From: a virus
Taxonomy: Duplodnaviria; Heunggongvirae; Uroviricota; Caudoviricetes
IMG/VR virus record: IMGVR_UViG_2541047688_000003
Length of the DNA: 14,076 nt
Strand: one strand, 5' to 3'
Every line of letters starts with the position of its first letter. Within the stretch, counting starts at the first letter, position 1. A model generated the notes under the pieces. The model was not told where the DNA came from and made no database searches. It was given only the letters and a program-made list of their open reading frames with translations. A program made the translations under genes and the position numbers. Below are positions 6,990-14,076 of the stretch, one piece after another.

Positions 6990-7286
6990 TTATACCTCTG
7001 AATCAATATCAGCCTGATGGTGAGCAATGGTTTCAACTATGTACCGGATGTGTTCTGCCATGCGCTCCTGAAACTCAACATCGTCATCAAACGCACGGGT
7101 AATGGCTTTTTTGCTGGCCCCGTGGCGTTGTAAATGATCGATGCATAGCGATTCAAACAGGTGCTGGGGCAGGCCTTTTTCCATGTCGTCTGCCAGTTCT
7201 GCCTCTTTCTCTTCACGGGCGATCTGCTGGTAGTGACGCGCCCAGCTCTGAGCCTCAAGACGATCCTGAATGTAATAAGCGTTCAT
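6990..7286 (-). CDS. gam: Gam, short form (GamS-type RecBCD inhibitor), 98 aa
   Basis: [21 protein letters not shown]...[10 protein letters not shown] matches the C-terminal 98 aa of lambda Gam. Own RBS CAGGAG upstream. The N-terminal extension coding sequence is present but out of frame (see findings). Confidence 0.93.
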
Positions 7287-7505: not shown

Positions 7506-7638
7506 TTTTTGGGACTCCTGGCTGATTAAGTATGTCGATAAGGCGTTTCCATCCGTCACGTAATTTACGGGTGATTCGTTCAAGTAAAGATTCGGAAGGG
7601 CAGCCAGCAACAGGCCACCCTGCAATGGCATATTGCAT
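7474..7638 (-). CDS. cIII: CIII (FtsH/HflB protease inhibitor), 54 aa
   Basis: ATG at 7636-7638 with AAGGAG RBS 6 nt upstream. [54 protein letters not shown] matches lambda CIII by recall. Confidence 0.85.
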   Translation of the reverse strand: MQYAIAGWPVAGCPSESLLERITRKLRDGWKRLIDILNQPGVPKNGSNNYGYPD

Positions 7639-7752
7639 GGTGTGCTCCTTATTTATACATAACGAAAAACGCCTCGAGTTGAAGTGGTTTACTGAATTTG
7701 GCCACCTGAACAGAGGTGATATGCTCACCTCAGAACAACACAGGTGCCATAA

Positions 7753-7795
7753 TGTCAACGCCACGATGTTTGACCGTTATTTGCCATTTTCATGC
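7753..7795. repeat. IS21 terminal inverted repeat (istB-proximal end)
   Basis: tgtcaacgccacgatgtttgaccgttatttgccatttt aligns, with one gap, to the reverse complement of the other end. Confidence 0.7.
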
Positions 7796-7812
7796 CCGCT
7801 AAGATACTTTCG

Positions 7813-9782
<1,970 letters not shown>

Positions 9783-9840
9783 GTTGATGTCCTTTCTGGT
9801 GTGAGAACCTTAAGGAAACAACATGTTGGGTGGAGCGGAC

Positions 9841-9883
9841 AATCCAAATGGTGAATTACCGTCTTATATCACTGGCGCTGACA
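9841..9883. repeat. IS21 terminal inverted repeat (istA-proximal end)
   Basis: Reverse complement reads tgtcagcgccagtgatataagacggtaattcaccattt, matching the opposite terminus. Confidence 0.7.
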
Positions 9884-10026
9884 GCTGGCAGTTGTATGAG
9901 CGCGGAGAGCTTGTTGATGTGCTGTGGGGGGAACTGGAATGGTCTTCCCCGACAGATGACGATGAGCTGCCGGAAGTCACCGGACCTGCGTGGATAGTCG
10001 ACAATGTGGCGCATTATGGCGGATGA
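9884..10026 (+). pseudogene. 3' remnant of a plus-strand gene truncated by the IS21 insertion or rearrangement
   Basis: Open frame runs from the IS boundary to TGA at 10024-10026 (...SWQLYERGELVDVLWGELEWSSPTDDDELPEVTGPAWIVDNVAHYGG) and is followed by a terminator. The frame upstream lies within IS DNA. Confidence 0.35.
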
Positions 10027-10038
10027 AGTATGACGGAG

Positions 10039-10067
10039 ACGGGCGGGCAACCGCCCGTTTCTTTTCC
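10039..10067 (+). terminator. Intrinsic terminator
   Basis: ACGGGCGG-GCAA-CCGCCCGT 8-bp GC-rich stem with tetraloop, followed by TTCTTTTCC. Confidence 0.6.
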
Positions 10068-10127
10068 GGTAAAGGATGTCGCCGTGCTCCTCTTTTTACT
10101 GCGCCGGCTGACGCGGCGCGGCATAAA

Positions 10128-10351
10128 CGCTGCCTGTGGTCAGTGTCCCGCGTCCGGTGGGCACGGGACGGGCGCTTTTACCGCTCCCGGCTGGCGTCGG
10201 TGACAGTGTACGCCAGCCTGTCGCCCTTTTCTGATGAACGCCCTTCAAGCCGCTTTCGCGGCATAGCCTTGCCGTCAGAAAGACGACGGCTGCGGTATTC
10301 CACGGTCGGCCTGACCCGTTACCGGACGCGGTGAACAGCCCACAGGCAGCG
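10128..10351 (+). promoter_or_regulatory. Long imperfect inverted repeat; candidate single-strand promoter (Frpo/ssi-like) or other structured regulatory element
   Basis: Arm 10128-10157 (cgctgcctgtggtcagtgtcccgcgtccgg) is about 25/30 complementary to arm 10322-10351. Arms are about 165 nt apart in a GC-rich noncoding region upstream of the methyltransferase gene. Confidence 0.4.
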
Positions 10352-10409
10352 GGGAACGGGCACCACAGGGGTGCCCTCCCGGTGCCCTCTGTAAGAGAAG
10401 GAGTTTTGT

Positions 10410-11093
10410 ATGTCCCGTTTTGTCCTCGGTAACTGCATCGATGTTATGGCCCGTATTCCTGATAACGCCATTGATTTCATACTGACTGACCCGCCGTACC
10501 TCGTCGGTTTCCGTGACCGTTCCGGGCGCACCATTGCCGGTGATGTTAATGATGACTGGCTGCAACCTGCCAGCAATGAGATGTACCGCGTACTCAAAAA
10601 AGACGCGCTGATGGTCAGCTTCTACGGCTGGAACCGTGTCGATCGCTTTATGGCCGCCTGGAAACGCGCCGGATTCAGCGTGGCAGGGCACCTCGTGTTC
10701 ACCAAAAACTACACATCCAAATCTGCGTATGTCGCGTACCGTCACGAATGCGCTTACATCCTGGCAAAGGGCAGTCCGGCCCGGCCCCGTAACCCTCTGC
10801 CGGATGTGCTGGGCTGGAAATATTCAGGCAATCGTCATCACCCGACGGAAAAGCCCGTTACCAGCCTGCAACCACTGATTGAGAGCTTCACACATCCGAA
10901 CGCGATTGTGCTGGACCCGTTTGCAGGCAGCGGCTCAACCTGCGTCGCTGCCCTCCAGTCCGGACGCCGGTATATCGGTATCGAGCTGCTTGAACAGTAT
11001 CACCGTGCCGGACAGCAACGACTGGCCGCCGTGCAACGGGCCATGCAGCAGGGGGCCGCGAATGATAACTGGTTTGAACCGGAGGCTGCGTAA
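10410..11093 (+). CDS. Orphan DNA amino-methyltransferase (DPPY motif, beta-class N6-adenine/N4-cytosine), 227 aa
   Basis: AAGGAG RBS 7 nt upstream. Catalytic motif TDPPYL near the N-terminus and SAM-binding motif DPFAGSGST near the C-terminus. No restriction endonuclease partner is visible in the window. Confidence 0.9.
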   Translation: MSRFVLGNCIDVMARIPDNAIDFILTDPPYLVGFRDRSGRTIAGDVNDDWLQPASNEMYRVLKKDALMVSFYGWNRVDRFMAAWKRAGFSVAGHLVFTKNYTSKSAYVAYRHECAYILAKGSPARPRNPLPDVLGWKYSGNRHHPTEKPVTSLQPLIESFTHPNAIVLDPFAGSGSTCVAALQSGRRYIGIELLEQYHRAGQQRLAAVQRAMQQGAANDNWFEPEAA

Positions 11094-11315
11094 ATGAACT
11101 ATGCCGGACACGAAAAACTTCGCGCCGACGTGGCGGAGGTGGCCAACACCATGTGTGACCTTCGGGCCAGGCTGAACGATATGGAGCATCGCTGTCGCTT
11201 TGATTCCGATGTGCTTGTTGAACGCCTGACACGCCAGACGCTGTATCGCGCCAATCGCCTGTTCATGGAGGCGTATACCGAAATTCTGGAACTGGATTCC
11301 TGCTTCAAAGATTGA
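11094..11315 (+). CDS. Hypothetical protein (73 aa)
   Basis: ATG immediately after the methyltransferase stop codon, GGAGG 10 nt upstream. Co-oriented in the same gene block. Confidence 0.6.
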   Translation: MNYAGHEKLRADVAEVANTMCDLRARLNDMEHRCRFDSDVLVERLTRQTLYRANRLFMEAYTEILELDSCFKD

Positions 11316-11328
11316 GAAGGAGACGAGA

Positions 11329-11763
11329 ATGTACGGAACATGCGAAACGCTATGCCGGAAGCTGGCAGCAAAGTATTCGGGAGACACGCCACTGATGCTG
11401 GTTATCTGGTCCCCGGAAGAAATTCAGGCCCTCTCTGACGGAATGGATATTGCCCTGACCGATCATGAAATCAGGACTGTCCTGGCGCGCCTGGAGGACA
11501 TCCCGGAAGACCAGCGGACTGAATCCGGTATTTCTTCCGGCGTGGCGATGGAGATCATCAATAACGTGAGCGAAAACCGCCAGGTGACTGTCCCTGCTGA
11601 ACTGCTGGCGTCCCTGATTCAGACCGCTGAACAGGCATTGTGGAAACGTGAATGGGCCGCCTGGGATCATGGCCTCGCCGTCCCGGAATGCGTCACCCGC
11701 CGTCAGGCGGTGGTTAATCAGGTCCGCATCCTGCTGAAAAACAACACACACGAAAACGACTGA
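11329..11763 (+). CDS. Plasmid leading-region protein, DUF1380-like (144 aa)
   Basis: AAGGAG RBS. Shares the motif R(Q/H)VTVPA(E/V)(L/M)L and a near-identical start region with the 13466-13888 ORF. Family name from recall, unverified. Confidence 0.75.
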   Translation: MYGTCETLCRKLAAKYSGDTPLMLVIWSPEEIQALSDGMDIALTDHEIRTVLARLEDIPEDQRTESGISSGVAMEIINNVSENRQVTVPAELLASLIQTAEQALWKREWAAWDHGLAVPECVTRRQAVVNQVRILLKNNTHEND

Positions 11764-11766
11764 TGT

Positions 11767-11790
11767 TATCGCCGCCTCCGGGCGGCGATA
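11767..11790 (+). other. Perfect hairpin without U-tract between genes
   Basis: TATCGCCGCC-TCCG-GGCGGCGATA (10-bp stem, 4-nt loop) immediately after the stop at 11761-11763. No T-run follows. Confidence 0.5.
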
Positions 11791-11807
11791 CAGGGAGTTC
11801 ATGAATT

Positions 11808-12578
11808 ATGAATGAAATGCTGAATGCACTGATTTATCGCCACGCCAGCAACCTGTTGCTGGCGCAGGGCTGGCCGGAAGAGACGGATGTTGACCAGCGT
11901 AACCCGAAGTATCCGGGCTGGATCAGCATTTACGTGCGGCTGGATGCGCCCCGGCTGGCGACGTTACTTATCAAGCGTCACGGCGGCGTACTGCCGCCGC
12001 TCCTGGCCTCTGCCATTCAGAAACTGACCGGAACCGGAGCGGAACTTGTTCTGTCCGGCAGTCAGTGGCAGTCGCTGCCGGTACTTCCGGCAGACGGAAC
12101 GCAGGTGTCTTTCCCGTATGCCGGTGAGTGGCTGGCAGAGGACGAAATCAGGGCCGTTCTTGGTGCGGTACGCGATGCAGTATGCAGTGTCAGTTACCAG
12201 GTGGCAGAAGATGCGCGGCGTATCCGTGCGGCGCTGACCACCACCGGTCAGACGTTGCTGACCCGCCAGACGCGCCGCTTTCGCCTGGTGGTGAAGGAAA
12301 GCGATCACCCCTGCTGGCTCGATGAAGACGACGAAAACCTGCCCGTGGTGCTCGATGCCATCCTGAACCGGGGCGCTCGTTTTTCGTCGGTGGAAATGTA
12401 TCTGGTCAGTGAGTGTGTGGAGCATATCCTGTCCAGTGGGCTGGCCTGCGATATGCTGCGTATACCGGATGAACCGCCCCGCCGCTGGTTTGACCGTGGT
12501 GTTCTGCGGGAGGTGGTCCGGGAAGCCCGGAACGAAATCCGCAGCATGGCGGATGCCCTGGCAAAAATCCGGAAATGA
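11808..12578 (+). CDS. Uncharacterised protein (256 aa)
   Basis: Long plus-strand ORF with AGGGAG upstream. No recognisable motif. Embedded between antirestriction-type genes. Confidence 0.75.
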
Positions 12579-12585
12579 TGACGCT

Positions 12586-12611
12586 GGCGGGGAAAAATCT
12601 CCGCCTTTTCC
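12586..12611 (+). terminator. Intrinsic terminator
   Basis: GGCGGGG-AAAAAT-CTCCGCC stem (one G-U pair) followed by TTTTCC, 8 nt after the stop codon. Confidence 0.5.
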
Positions 12612-12720
12612 AGTCGGTCCCCGGAAAGAGCAAAAGGATGTCGCCGCAGGCTCCTCTTTACCCGGCCATGTGGGGCATGGCCTTGTGGGTTTTCAGTTAT
12701 GTGGCCTCAGCGTCGTGTGC

Positions 12721-12956
12721 GGGCTGTGCCGTGCCTCCATCGTAGCCGGGCTTCTGCGGGCGGGTTGCAAGGTAAGGTGAACCGCTGCGGTCACCCGGTC
12801 CCTCCTTCCCGTCTGCCGTGATTTTCCGGTCGTTCACCCGCTCAGATTTCGCGGTCTCACCCTCCAACTCCCGTCAGCCGTGCGCGTCAGGCTGCGGCTT
12901 CCCTTGCGCCCTTGCAACCCTGCAGGCCCGGCAAAGATGGAGGCACGGCACCGCCC
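12721..12956 (+). promoter_or_regulatory. Second long imperfect inverted repeat (about 50-nt arms); candidate single-strand promoter or structured regulatory element
   Basis: Arm 12721-12772 pairs with arm 12910-12956, including a perfect 14-nt core gccgtgcctccatc / gatggaggcacggc. Lies upstream of klcA. Confidence 0.4.
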
Positions 12957-12993
12957 GGTGTCGCGGAATATGTGAACAACGGAGGAAAACATC

Positions 12994-13419
12994 ATGCAAT
13001 ATGCGAAACCTGTCACTCTGAATGTTGAAGAGTGCGACCGTCTCTCCTTTCTGCCTTACCTGTTTGGCCTGGATTTTCTGTATGCCGAGGCATCTGTGTA
13101 CACGCTGGCGAAAAAAATGATGCCGGAATATGAAGGCGGATTCTGGCACTTCATCCGCCTGCCGGACGGTGGCGGTTACATGATGCCGGATGGCGACCGT
13201 TTTCATCTGGTTAACGGTGAAAACTGGTTTGACCGTACCGTGAGTGCTGATGCCGCAGGCATCATCCTTACCTCCCTTGTGATTAACCGCCAGTTGTGGC
13301 TGTACCACGACAGCGGGGATGCAGGGTTGACACACCTGTACAGGATGCGCGATGCGCAGTTGTGGAGCCACATCGAATTTCACCCCGAATGCAACGCGAT
13401 TTACGCGGCACTTGACTGA
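12994..13419 (+). CDS. klcA: ArdB/KlcA-family antirestriction protein (141 aa)
   Basis: GGAGG RBS. Motifs [30 protein letters not shown] and [12 protein letters not shown] parallel ArdB/KlcA proteins as recalled. Confidence 0.85.
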
Positions 13420-13428
13420 TTAACGGAC

Positions 13429-13447
13429 GGGGCGGCAATGCCGCCCC
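13429..13447 (+). other. GC hairpin without U-tract upstream of the next RBS
   Basis: GGGGCGGC-AAT-GCCGCCCC 8-bp perfect stem, followed directly by AAAGGAGACGAGAAC and ATG at 13466. Confidence 0.45.
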
Positions 13448-13465
13448 TGTAAAGGAGACGAGAAC

Positions 13466-13888
13466 ATGTACTGTACTGTTAAAGAAATCATCCGCGATGT
13501 ACTGGATACAGACGTGCCGGACAGTGAATGCGTTTTTGCCGTGGTGCTGACCCGTGGGGATGTGCGTCACATAGCCCAGGACTGGAGTCTGACAGACGAT
13601 GAGCTGGAAACCGTCATGCAGCGGCTGGACGATGCTTTTGTATATGGCGCATGTGACAGAGTTGTTTCCGATATTGTAAATGAACTGATGGAAGAAAAGC
13701 GCGCCAGCCGTCATGTGACAGTCCCGGCGGTGATGCTGGAAAAAGTGATGGCGCTGGCAGGCAGTGAAATGAAGCGCCTGTATGCCGTCGGGAGTGAGAA
13801 CGGGGGCGACGGTGACGCATTCGTCAGGGAGGAACGCGAAGCAATGGACGTTGTGTTACAGGCGCTGGACGGGGAGCACATGTCATGA
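13466..13888 (+). CDS. DUF1380-like paralogue (140 aa)
   Basis: Same RBS and start context (aaggagacgagaacatgtac) as the 11329 gene. Shared RHVTVPAVML motif. Confidence 0.75.
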   Translation: MYCTVKEIIRDVLDTDVPDSECVFAVVLTRGDVRHIAQDWSLTDDELETVMQRLDDAFVYGACDRVVSDIVNELMEEKRASRHVTVPAVMLEKVMALAGSEMKRLYAVGSENGGDGDAFVREEREAMDVVLQALDGEHMS

Positions 13889-14076
13889 ATATCAGCACAG
13901 AAACCCGCGAAATTCTGCGTAATTACAGGGCCGTGATTAATGCGCGGCGTCGTGAAATGGGGCAGAAACCGCTCACCACCGCGCAGATTGTTGATGAAAT
14001 CTGCGATTTTGTGGCGAATCAGCAGGCGGTTTTCCTGGGCGGTCACTACATCTTACAGGGCAGCAGAAACAGGTGA
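13885..14076 (+). CDS. Hypothetical small protein (63 aa)
   Basis: ATGA overlap with the preceding gene. Stop codon TGA at 14074-14076, the last three bases of the window. Confidence 0.55.
   Translation: MNISTETREILRNYRAVINARRREMGQKPLTTAQIVDEICDFVANQQAVFLGGHYILQGSRNR

Follow-up and report, generated by a model that had tools for sequence, protein, structure and literature searches.

A block of antirestriction genes joined through IS21 to lambdoid prophage DNA matches the leading region of F-like conjugative plasmids

The viral sequence record IMGVR_UViG_2541047688_000003 (14,076 bp, analyzed over its whole length and called the window below) ends in a block of genes, positions 9884-14076, that includes an orphan DNA methyltransferase and a KlcA/ArdB antirestriction protein. 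A first-pass annotation read this block as an anti-defense island of the type found in plasmid leading regions and singled it out as the likeliest place in the window for an undescribed system. Is there a new system here? We found that the observation and the leading-region interpretation were right, and that the block is not an undescribed system but one already known. It is very likely the part of the canonical leading region that lies distal to the origin of transfer (oriT) in conjugative plasmids of the F-like (pUTI89-type) and IncI1 groups. Its two transcription units would be off on duplex DNA and on only while the DNA is single-stranded in the recipient. Few plasmid modules are better known or more abundant than this block, and how it works has already been published for sequences with 94-100% identity to it.

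The genes downstream of IS21 are as annotated. All seven named open reading frames (ORFs) are present on the plus strand, within 10410-14076, in the order methyltransferase, 73-amino-acid (73-aa) protein, DUF1380 protein, 256-aa protein, KlcA/ArdB, a weak DUF1380 paralogue, and 63-aa protein (Table 1). The block is GC-rich (0.53-0.62, compared to 0.42-0.53 in the prophage part of the window).

We found that pUTI89 (NC_007941, 61717-65909), like many other plasmids of the IncF group, matched the 4,193 bases of the block with 100% identity. This part of the pUTI89 leading region consists of the same seven genes, with order, orientation and structured upstream regions unchanged. F (NC_002483, 54166-57837) has the same layout, with proteins 89-98% identical to those of the window, and so does the IncI1 plasmid pESBL-EA11 (54782-58453; pESBL below). 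At least 5,000 plasmids matched the block, and 4,100 of the matches listed were predicted to be conjugative. Among 5,426 complete E. coli genomes, 3,850 contained a match and 3,128 contained at least 80% of the block; these genomes held the block at 7,274 plasmid places versus 94 chromosomal ones. The single match indicating spread by phage was one 1.9-kb unannotated phage record. Because the block is present in more than half of complete E. coli genomes and in thousands of plasmids for resistance or virulence, its biology bears on how antibiotic resistance spreads, and this importance is already recognized.

The first-pass annotation had proposed looking for oriT nearby in related replicons, and this check was positive. 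In pUTI89 and F the block lies between a DUF1281 gene and ssb, psiB and oriT. The genes that follow it in pUTI89 are those for a DUF3560 protein, a class I methyltransferase, ssb, DUF905, a ParB-like protein, psiB, hok and gene X, and then oriT and traM; in F they likewise include ssb, psiB, psiA and hok toward oriT. Contigs encoding an identical KlcA protein (L009-L014) have the same layout as pUTI89. The F nic-site sequence is on the opposite (minus) strand, 8.3-12 kb from the block in F and 11.6-15.2 kb from it in pUTI89. Therefore, the transferred strand (T-strand) corresponds to the minus strand of the window, which is the template of all seven genes. Both the leading-region location and this T-strand orientation were found in the replicons pUTI89, F and pESBL; the window itself has no oriT. 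It differs from pUTI89 and F in that the block is severed at IS21 and fused to prophage DNA, and in that it ends before ssb, psiB and oriT.

The two recognizable enzymes or inhibitors of the block are of types with experimentally validated antirestriction functions. The 227-aa methyltransferase matched PF01555 (N6_N4_Mtase, E = 1.6e-38 over residues 21-201), with the motif TDPPY at residues 26-30, and NCBIfam NF010253 (E = 2e-147). It is an orphan, as had been claimed: no restriction endonuclease gene was found among its neighbors in the window, pUTI89, F or pESBL. It was 96% identical to M.EcoGIX of pESBL over all 227 residues (reference at L004:4783-5466, assigned by the coordinates in Table 2 of PMC4288162) and 89% identical to the F homologue. 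In F and pUTI89 its gene lies 12-15 kb from nic, with the nic sequence on the opposite strand. The ratio of nonsynonymous to synonymous substitution rates (dN/dS) was 0.12-0.15, including 0.15 against M.EcoGIX. M.EcoGIX, an N6-methyladenine (m6A) enzyme, is promiscuous and single-strand-specific, with SAY as its target context. It shields pESBL up to 1000-fold from EcoGIII or EcoRI in recipients, in a manner that depends on oriT orientation (PMC4288162, PMC7736820). The cloned enzyme alone methylates DNA and guards against restriction, and it works together with DNA polymerase I (PMC7736820). By analogy with this 96%-identical enzyme, the methyltransferase of the window would methylate single-stranded DNA (ssDNA) at SAY and protect DNA during conjugation.

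The assignment of KlcA/ArdB also held. The protein matched PF03230 (Antirestrict, E = 2.7e-26) and, among sequences of known structure, KlcA (2kmg, E = 1.1e-17, residues 5-141) and ArdB (2wj9, E = 1.1e-8). It shared 94% identity with its F and pESBL counterparts, with dN/dS of 0.11-0.13. The F homologue, yfgB, is 93% identical to R64 ArdB and is the first gene after the hairpin promoter ssp2 (bioRxiv 10.64898/2026.01.09.698686). Inhibition of type I restriction in vivo has been reported for R64 ArdB and RP4 KlcA; for F yfgB it was inferred from the phenotype of an ssp2 deletion (bioRxiv 10.64898/2026.01.09.698686).

We found that two long gaps of the block, 10027-10409 and 12579-12993, are not plain intergenic DNA, as they had been treated, but hold structured elements. 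Each contains an inverted repeat of about 230 nt. Folded as ssDNA, the T-strand had a predicted energy of -108.9 kcal/mol upstream of the methyltransferase gene (ssp3, z = -6.7) and -102.7 kcal/mol upstream of klcA (ssp2, z = -5.7), and 0/100 shuffled sequences were as stable. In three-way alignments with F and pESBL, mean column identity was 98% in the region upstream of the methyltransferase gene and 94% in that upstream of klcA. Both stretches are thus conserved between IncF and IncI plasmids more than some coding DNA. Diverged copies of ssp2 keep their pairing through compensatory changes. We aligned six sequences, four from upstream of klcA (window, F, pESBL and a diverged metagenomic plasmid) and two from upstream of ardA (pESBL and the same metagenomic plasmid). 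In this alignment 93% of cells paired, and 24/76 pairs were changed on both sides. Shuffled alignments gave 8.6 ± 2.2 such pairs (0/500 reached 24), and sliding the partner gave 0-5. For ssp3, 14 of 99 predicted pairs were compensatory, among four sequences only.

Judged by sequence and predicted fold, these stretches are the published class 3 (ssp3) and class 2 (ssp2) ssDNA promoters. pESBL has six operons with ssDNA promoters of classes 1-3 that are zygotically induced; the class 2 and class 3 transcription starts were mapped there by 5' rapid amplification of cDNA ends, and the elements were reported to be conserved in F (PMC12672017). In F, ssp2 stalls complementary-strand synthesis until UvrD resolves the hairpin, and deletion of ssp2 reduces transfer into EcoGIII and EcoKI recipients (bioRxiv 10.64898/2026.01.09.698686). 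Because starts and zygotic induction have been shown for pESBL and F elements 94-98% identical to those of the window, we expect transcription to begin at ssp2 and ssp3 here as well. A scan of 9800-14076 for the sigma-70 consensus found no duplex promoter match (1.7 expected), consistent with expression only from ssDNA. Each transcription unit also has a terminator-like hairpin ahead of it (10039-10065 and 12586-12609). A scan of the block against Rfam gave no match.

A short motif accompanies the hairpins. The sequence AAAGGATGTCGCCG(N4-5)CTCCTCTTT lies approximately 30-60 nt ahead of the left arm of both hairpin promoters. In F, pUTI89 and pESBL, each class 2 or class 3 hairpin, that of ardA included, has the core of the motif, AAGGANGTCGCCG, upstream of it and always on the plus strand; no exact occurrence was found in more diverged plasmids. 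We considered AAAGGATGTCGCCG as the start of a small ORF and rejected this, as the pESBL klcA copy has ACG for ATG. The 103-aa ORF annotated by RefSeq at 10023-10334 (WP_001310011.1) is probably not a gene either. It has no Shine-Dalgarno sequence, its product would have an isoelectric point (pI) of 11.7, and it overlies ssp3; in F it has another start frame, and a 1-nt indel is needed to rejoin it.

During conjugation, the transferred strand enters the recipient 5' to 3' from oriT. Based on the results above and on the published work, we suggest that the block would act as follows. On entry, the transferred strand (the minus strand of the window) would be the template of all seven genes. The stem-loops ssp3 and ssp2 on this strand would mimic duplex promoters, and host RNA polymerase would transcribe two operons, methyltransferase-YubE-DUF1380-256-aa and KlcA-DUF1380b-63-aa. 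The M.EcoGIX-type enzyme would methylate adenines (SAY) on the entering strand, so that the resulting duplex resists type II restriction, and KlcA/ArdB would block type I restriction, as shown for homologues. The ssp2 hairpin would stall complementary-strand synthesis until host UvrD melts it, prolonging early expression, as shown in F. Once the DNA becomes duplex the hairpin promoters would vanish and expression would end. The five uncharacterized early proteins would, by inference, be accessory establishment or anti-defense factors that matter only in particular recipients.

Table 1. Features of the window, with coordinates in the 14,076-bp sequence
Feature	Coordinates	Strand	Remarks
Lambdoid prophage early-left arm (int, xis, exo, bet, gam, kil, cIII)	1 to ~7748		
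IS21	7749-9883	-	istA 8610-9782, istB 7813-8613
DUF1281 gene 3' remnant, disrupted by IS21	9884-10026	+	aligned with intact pESBL DUF1281 and pUTI89 left flank; pUTI89 annotation
Terminator-like hairpin after DUF1281 stop (8 bp, GCAA loop, T-run)	10039-10065	+	read from sequence; invariant in F and pESBL
Conserved motif AAAGGATGTCGCCG..CTCCTCTTT, copy 1	10071-10099	+	direct repeat, between terminator-like hairpin and ssp3
ssp3, class 3 ssDNA promoter hairpin (putative), methyltransferase operon	10128-10351	-	arms 10128-10158 and 10321-10351
M.EcoGIX-type N6-adenine DNA methyltransferase, 227 aa	10410-11093	+	PF01555, NF010253
73-aa YubE-family protein	11094-11315	+	PF27407; phrog_4830, E = 1e-36
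DUF1380 protein, 144 aa, acidic, pI 4.8	11329-11763	+	PF07128
256-aa protein, last gene of methyltransferase operon	11808-12578	+	Hp11/'YchA' in pESBL
Terminator-like hairpin after 256-aa gene stop (8 pairs, AAAA loop, TTTT)	12586-12609	+	read from sequence; kept in F and pESBL
Conserved motif AAAGGATGTCGCCG..CTCCTCTTT, copy 2	12633-12661	+	
ssp2, class 2 ssDNA promoter hairpin (putative), klcA operon	12720-12957	-	arms 12720-12751 and 12926-12957
KlcA/ArdB antirestriction protein, 141 aa	12994-13419	+	PF03230; F homologue yfgB
Divergent DUF1380 paralogue, 140 aa, pI 4.4	13466-13888	+	PF07128, sub-threshold
63-aa protein (Hp13 of pESBL)	13885-14076	+	start overlaps previous stop (ATGA); stop codon is window end

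The architecture is thus published, as two operons with ssDNA promoters, and this leaves the claim that the block is the likeliest place for an undescribed system without support. The methyltransferase belongs with M.EcoGIX, the unknown ORFs have long been on record as conserved hypothetical proteins, and the methyltransferase, KlcA/ArdB and the two ssDNA promoters were dissected experimentally between 2014 and 2026. Among the closest described relatives of the two operons are the M.EcoGIX and klcA operons of pESBL. That plasmid differs from the window in its backbone (IncI1 rather than IncF), in its YubE protein (77% identical), and in ssp2, in which the pUTI89 type has compensated changes mid-stem. 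The class 1 (Frpo/ssi) promoters of F and ColIb-P9 (Masai and Arai 1997, as cited in PMC12672017) work on the same principle, a stem-loop of the transferred strand that recreates a duplex promoter and is active only before complementary-strand synthesis. In contrast, the class 2 and class 3 elements have no sequence homology to Frpo (PMC12672017), and the class 1 elements lie outside the window; in pUTI89 and F they are closer to oriT, upstream of ssb and psiB. Plasmid leading regions have been described as anti-defense islands (Samuel et al. 2024, PMC11541004). As in the window, these islands combine an orphan methyltransferase, an antirestriction gene and uncharacterized families that can be transcribed from the T-strand, with ssDNA promoters. 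We found no categorical difference between them and the block, which is among the most abundant examples.

What remains of interest are five conserved, zygotically induced small proteins. Their genes are real and evolve under purifying selection. A Shine-Dalgarno sequence or a coupled start codon was found for each of the five, and they map one-to-one to Hp9-Hp13 of pESBL. For the genes of the block, dN/dS was 0.07-0.36 in 18/19 comparisons. With the exception of the 63-aa gene (0.07-0.17), the uncharacterized genes had values of 0.2-0.36, approximately 2-3 times those of the methyltransferase and KlcA genes (0.11-0.15) in the same plasmid pairs. Searches of the literature for yubD-J and yffA/yffB/yfgB found no functional study of the five ORFs. 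Our results reveal no new kind of system among them; the data on selection, homology and placement of the 256-aa gene serve to guide the choice of targets.

Profile and structure searches, which had been proposed for the 73-, 256- and 63-aa proteins, gave no informative function and only a family name, YubE, for the first of them. The ATG of the 73-aa gene directly abuts the TAA stop of the methyltransferase gene. Its product had no match in the local copies of Pfam, NCBIfam and PADLOC, the PF27407 (YubE) model being absent from that copy of Pfam. Precomputed matches to a newer Pfam assign PF27407 to the product of the 73-aa gene in L009-L014, and to diverged homologues of it in L008, L020 and L021. 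YubE was 77% identical to the pESBL protein (dN/dS 0.14-0.28). The 63-aa protein had no family match in the local Pfam, NCBIfam, PHROGs and PADLOC. Its family consists of 199 clusters, all from enterobacterial plasmids, and a 60%-identical homologue is encoded directly after KlcA in L020.

The claim of two DUF1380-like paralogues stood for the first copy and needs qualification for the second. The first matched PF07128 with E = 8.9e-51 and 172 bits (gathering threshold 26). The second scored 17.4 bits against the same cut-off (E = 0.0048) and is therefore below threshold. By BLASTP the two copies were 28% identical (E = 6e-7). Taken together, the BLASTP match and the sub-threshold score indicate that the second copy is a distant paralogue that falls short of scored membership in the family; its dN/dS was 0.32-0.35. 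The AlphaFold 2 model of the DUF1380 protein was weak and all-helical, with a predicted local distance difference test score (pLDDT) of 73 and a predicted template modeling score of 0.44 (pLDDT of the other four models, 49-58). In a search of the PDB with the DUF1380 profile, the sole match was a de novo designed protein (E = 0.0045), and fold matches were otherwise generic.

The DUF1380 gene also contains a match to a CRISPR spacer. A type I-F spacer of E. coli STEC299, a marmot isolate (NZ_CP022279; L015, 702-734), matched 11482-11514 with 100% identity over 33 nt. F, pESBL and pUTI89 each have an exact copy of the protospacer, and the spacer is the one nearest to the cas6f side of the array. 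Type I-F interference needs a flanking CC. The dinucleotide flanking this protospacer is CG, and interference may be weak.

The 256-aa protein had no match in Pfam, NCBIfam or PADLOC and matched only an unnamed family in PHROGs, and the result was the same with 18 diverged members. Neither phmmer nor a family profile found anything below E = 0.4 among PDB sequences. Its predicted fold was confident (pLDDT 89), and a Foldseek search of BFVD gave no match at E <= 0.001. The name "YubG family protein" is listed under the match in one 93.8%-identical RefSeq record and probably belongs to this protein. The family is small (177 representatives of 50%-identity clusters).

We found that this family has a fixed downstream neighborhood. 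In 9/9 contexts with a visible downstream gene (window, F, pESBL, L006 and L016-L020), the 256-aa gene or a homologue (23-46% identity) was followed by a spacer of 166-427 nt and then by KlcA or ArdA. The upstream neighbors varied: methyltransferase-YubE-DUF1380, methyltransferase-YubE, a 156-aa protein, or DUF1281. All 12 spacers tested upstream of klcA, ardA or methyltransferase genes folded better than shuffled sequences (z = -2.9 to -8.1). The small new point here is that the 256-aa family is the most persistently placed unknown beside antirestriction genes. This is an association only.

By analogy with the genes around them, the uncharacterized ORFs are plausible anti-defense factors. It is possible, if somewhat doubtful, that at least one of the five proteins is a new anti-defense or establishment effector. 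The best candidate could be the 256-aa protein, because it combines a confident fold without a detectable relative with a fixed place before an ssp2-type spacer and KlcA or ArdA; it could work together with type I antirestriction or alongside it. The two acidic DUF1380 paralogues (net charges -9 and -16) could mimic proteins or DNA. Alternatively, and here too we would go no further than a tentative view, the five proteins might serve other establishment tasks: modulation of the methyltransferase or of DNA polymerase I, handling or priming of ssDNA, or reprogramming of the host like that by the ParB-like protein YfjB/HerB. Leading regions also hold establishment genes that are not for defense, and YfjB/HerB reprograms host transcription (PMC13370423); the cooperation of M.EcoGIX with DNA polymerase I (PMC7736820) makes accessory factors conceivable; and none of the five proteins matched a PADLOC model or an anti-defense fold. 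However, the 256-aa family occurs beside KlcA or ArdA without a methyltransferase (L006, L016-L019) and so is not a dedicated methyltransferase subunit, and the 2- to 3-fold faster evolution of the uncharacterized ORFs would suit an arms race, or equally relaxed constraint. It is very improbable that the methyltransferase, YubE, DUF1380 and 256-aa proteins make up one obligate multi-protein system. Their genes are tightly packed and partly translationally coupled, they share an ssDNA promoter and a terminator-like hairpin, and their order is kept in F, pESBL, L020 and L021. In contrast, L008 has methyltransferase, YubE and a 256-aa homologue without DUF1380, and L006 and L016-L019 have a 256-aa homologue without methyltransferase, YubE or DUF1380. 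The cloned M.EcoGIX also methylates and protects by itself (PMC7736820). The modular upstream neighbors of the 256-aa family argue against an obligate system centered on the methyltransferase, and we rejected it on this synteny.

Several results weigh against the view that the block is a leading region with promoters active on ssDNA. There is no oriT, relaxase, ssb or psiB within the window. The -35 and -10 boxes in the hairpins were not located; by eye there were weak candidates only, such as TTGCAA at 12912-12917. The ssp2 hairpin was nearly as stable on the other strand (-98.5 versus -102.7 kcal/mol), so the strand assignment rests on oriT geometry and not on folding. Hp9-Hp13 were dispensable for maintenance of pESBL and for its transfer into K-12 in a transposon-sequencing experiment (PMC4288162). 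Finally, the DNA to the left is prophage DNA, joined through IS21 without a matching target duplication, and the view to the right ends at 14076. The block in the window might be a stranded or artefactual copy, either in a chimeric contig that the assembler mis-joined across identical IS21 copies or as a piece of plasmid that recombination has placed in a chromosomal prophage, where it would not act as a leading region any more. We regard this as an even call. The IS21 left flank is lambdoid and ends ATAA while the right flank has the GCTG of the plasmid, the prophage/IS21 joint was absent from 5,426 complete E. coli genomes and 72,556 PLSDB plasmids, and the 94 chromosomal places of the block show that integration does occur. 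However, the DNA of plasmid origin shows no degradation: together with IS21, it matches intact conjugative plasmids at 100% identity.

IS21 (termini TGTCAACG...GCGCTGACA) is the left boundary of the block and, in the window, couples it to lambdoid prophage DNA that is 100% identical to phage ev017 and to a prophage of ATCC 25922. Identity to pUTI89-type plasmids begins at 7749. The right end of IS21 is 9883, hence the block start at 9884 is exact; an annotated 67-aa ORF (9823-10026) starts within IS21. In pUTI89, the same IS21 lies inside the DUF1281 gene, with a GCTG target duplication on both sides. In the window, the right GCTG is kept (9884-9887; flank GCTGGCAG...), and the left flank, which meets IS21 within 7740-7760, is prophage DNA from the cIII side that ends CCATAA. 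The target-site duplications are thus unmatched, GCTG on the right versus ATAA on the left. From this and from the absence of the joint in genomes and plasmids, the junction is either an assembly chimera or the product of recombination between two IS21 copies, by which a plasmid became integrated in, or fused to, a replicon carrying the prophage. As expected for a lambdoid arm, the lambda cIII thermoregulator element (Rfam RF01804) was found at 7593-7651 on the minus strand (88.5 bits).

Leading-region modules can also occur in several copies. One E. coli contig (L011; GCA_000458845.1, KE700750.1, 1148-20426) contained methyltransferase-YubE-DUF1380 twice, KlcA twice, and SSB-DUF905-ParB-like three times. 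These multiple modules suggest either that repeated elements of leading regions have recombined with each other or that the assembly is at fault.

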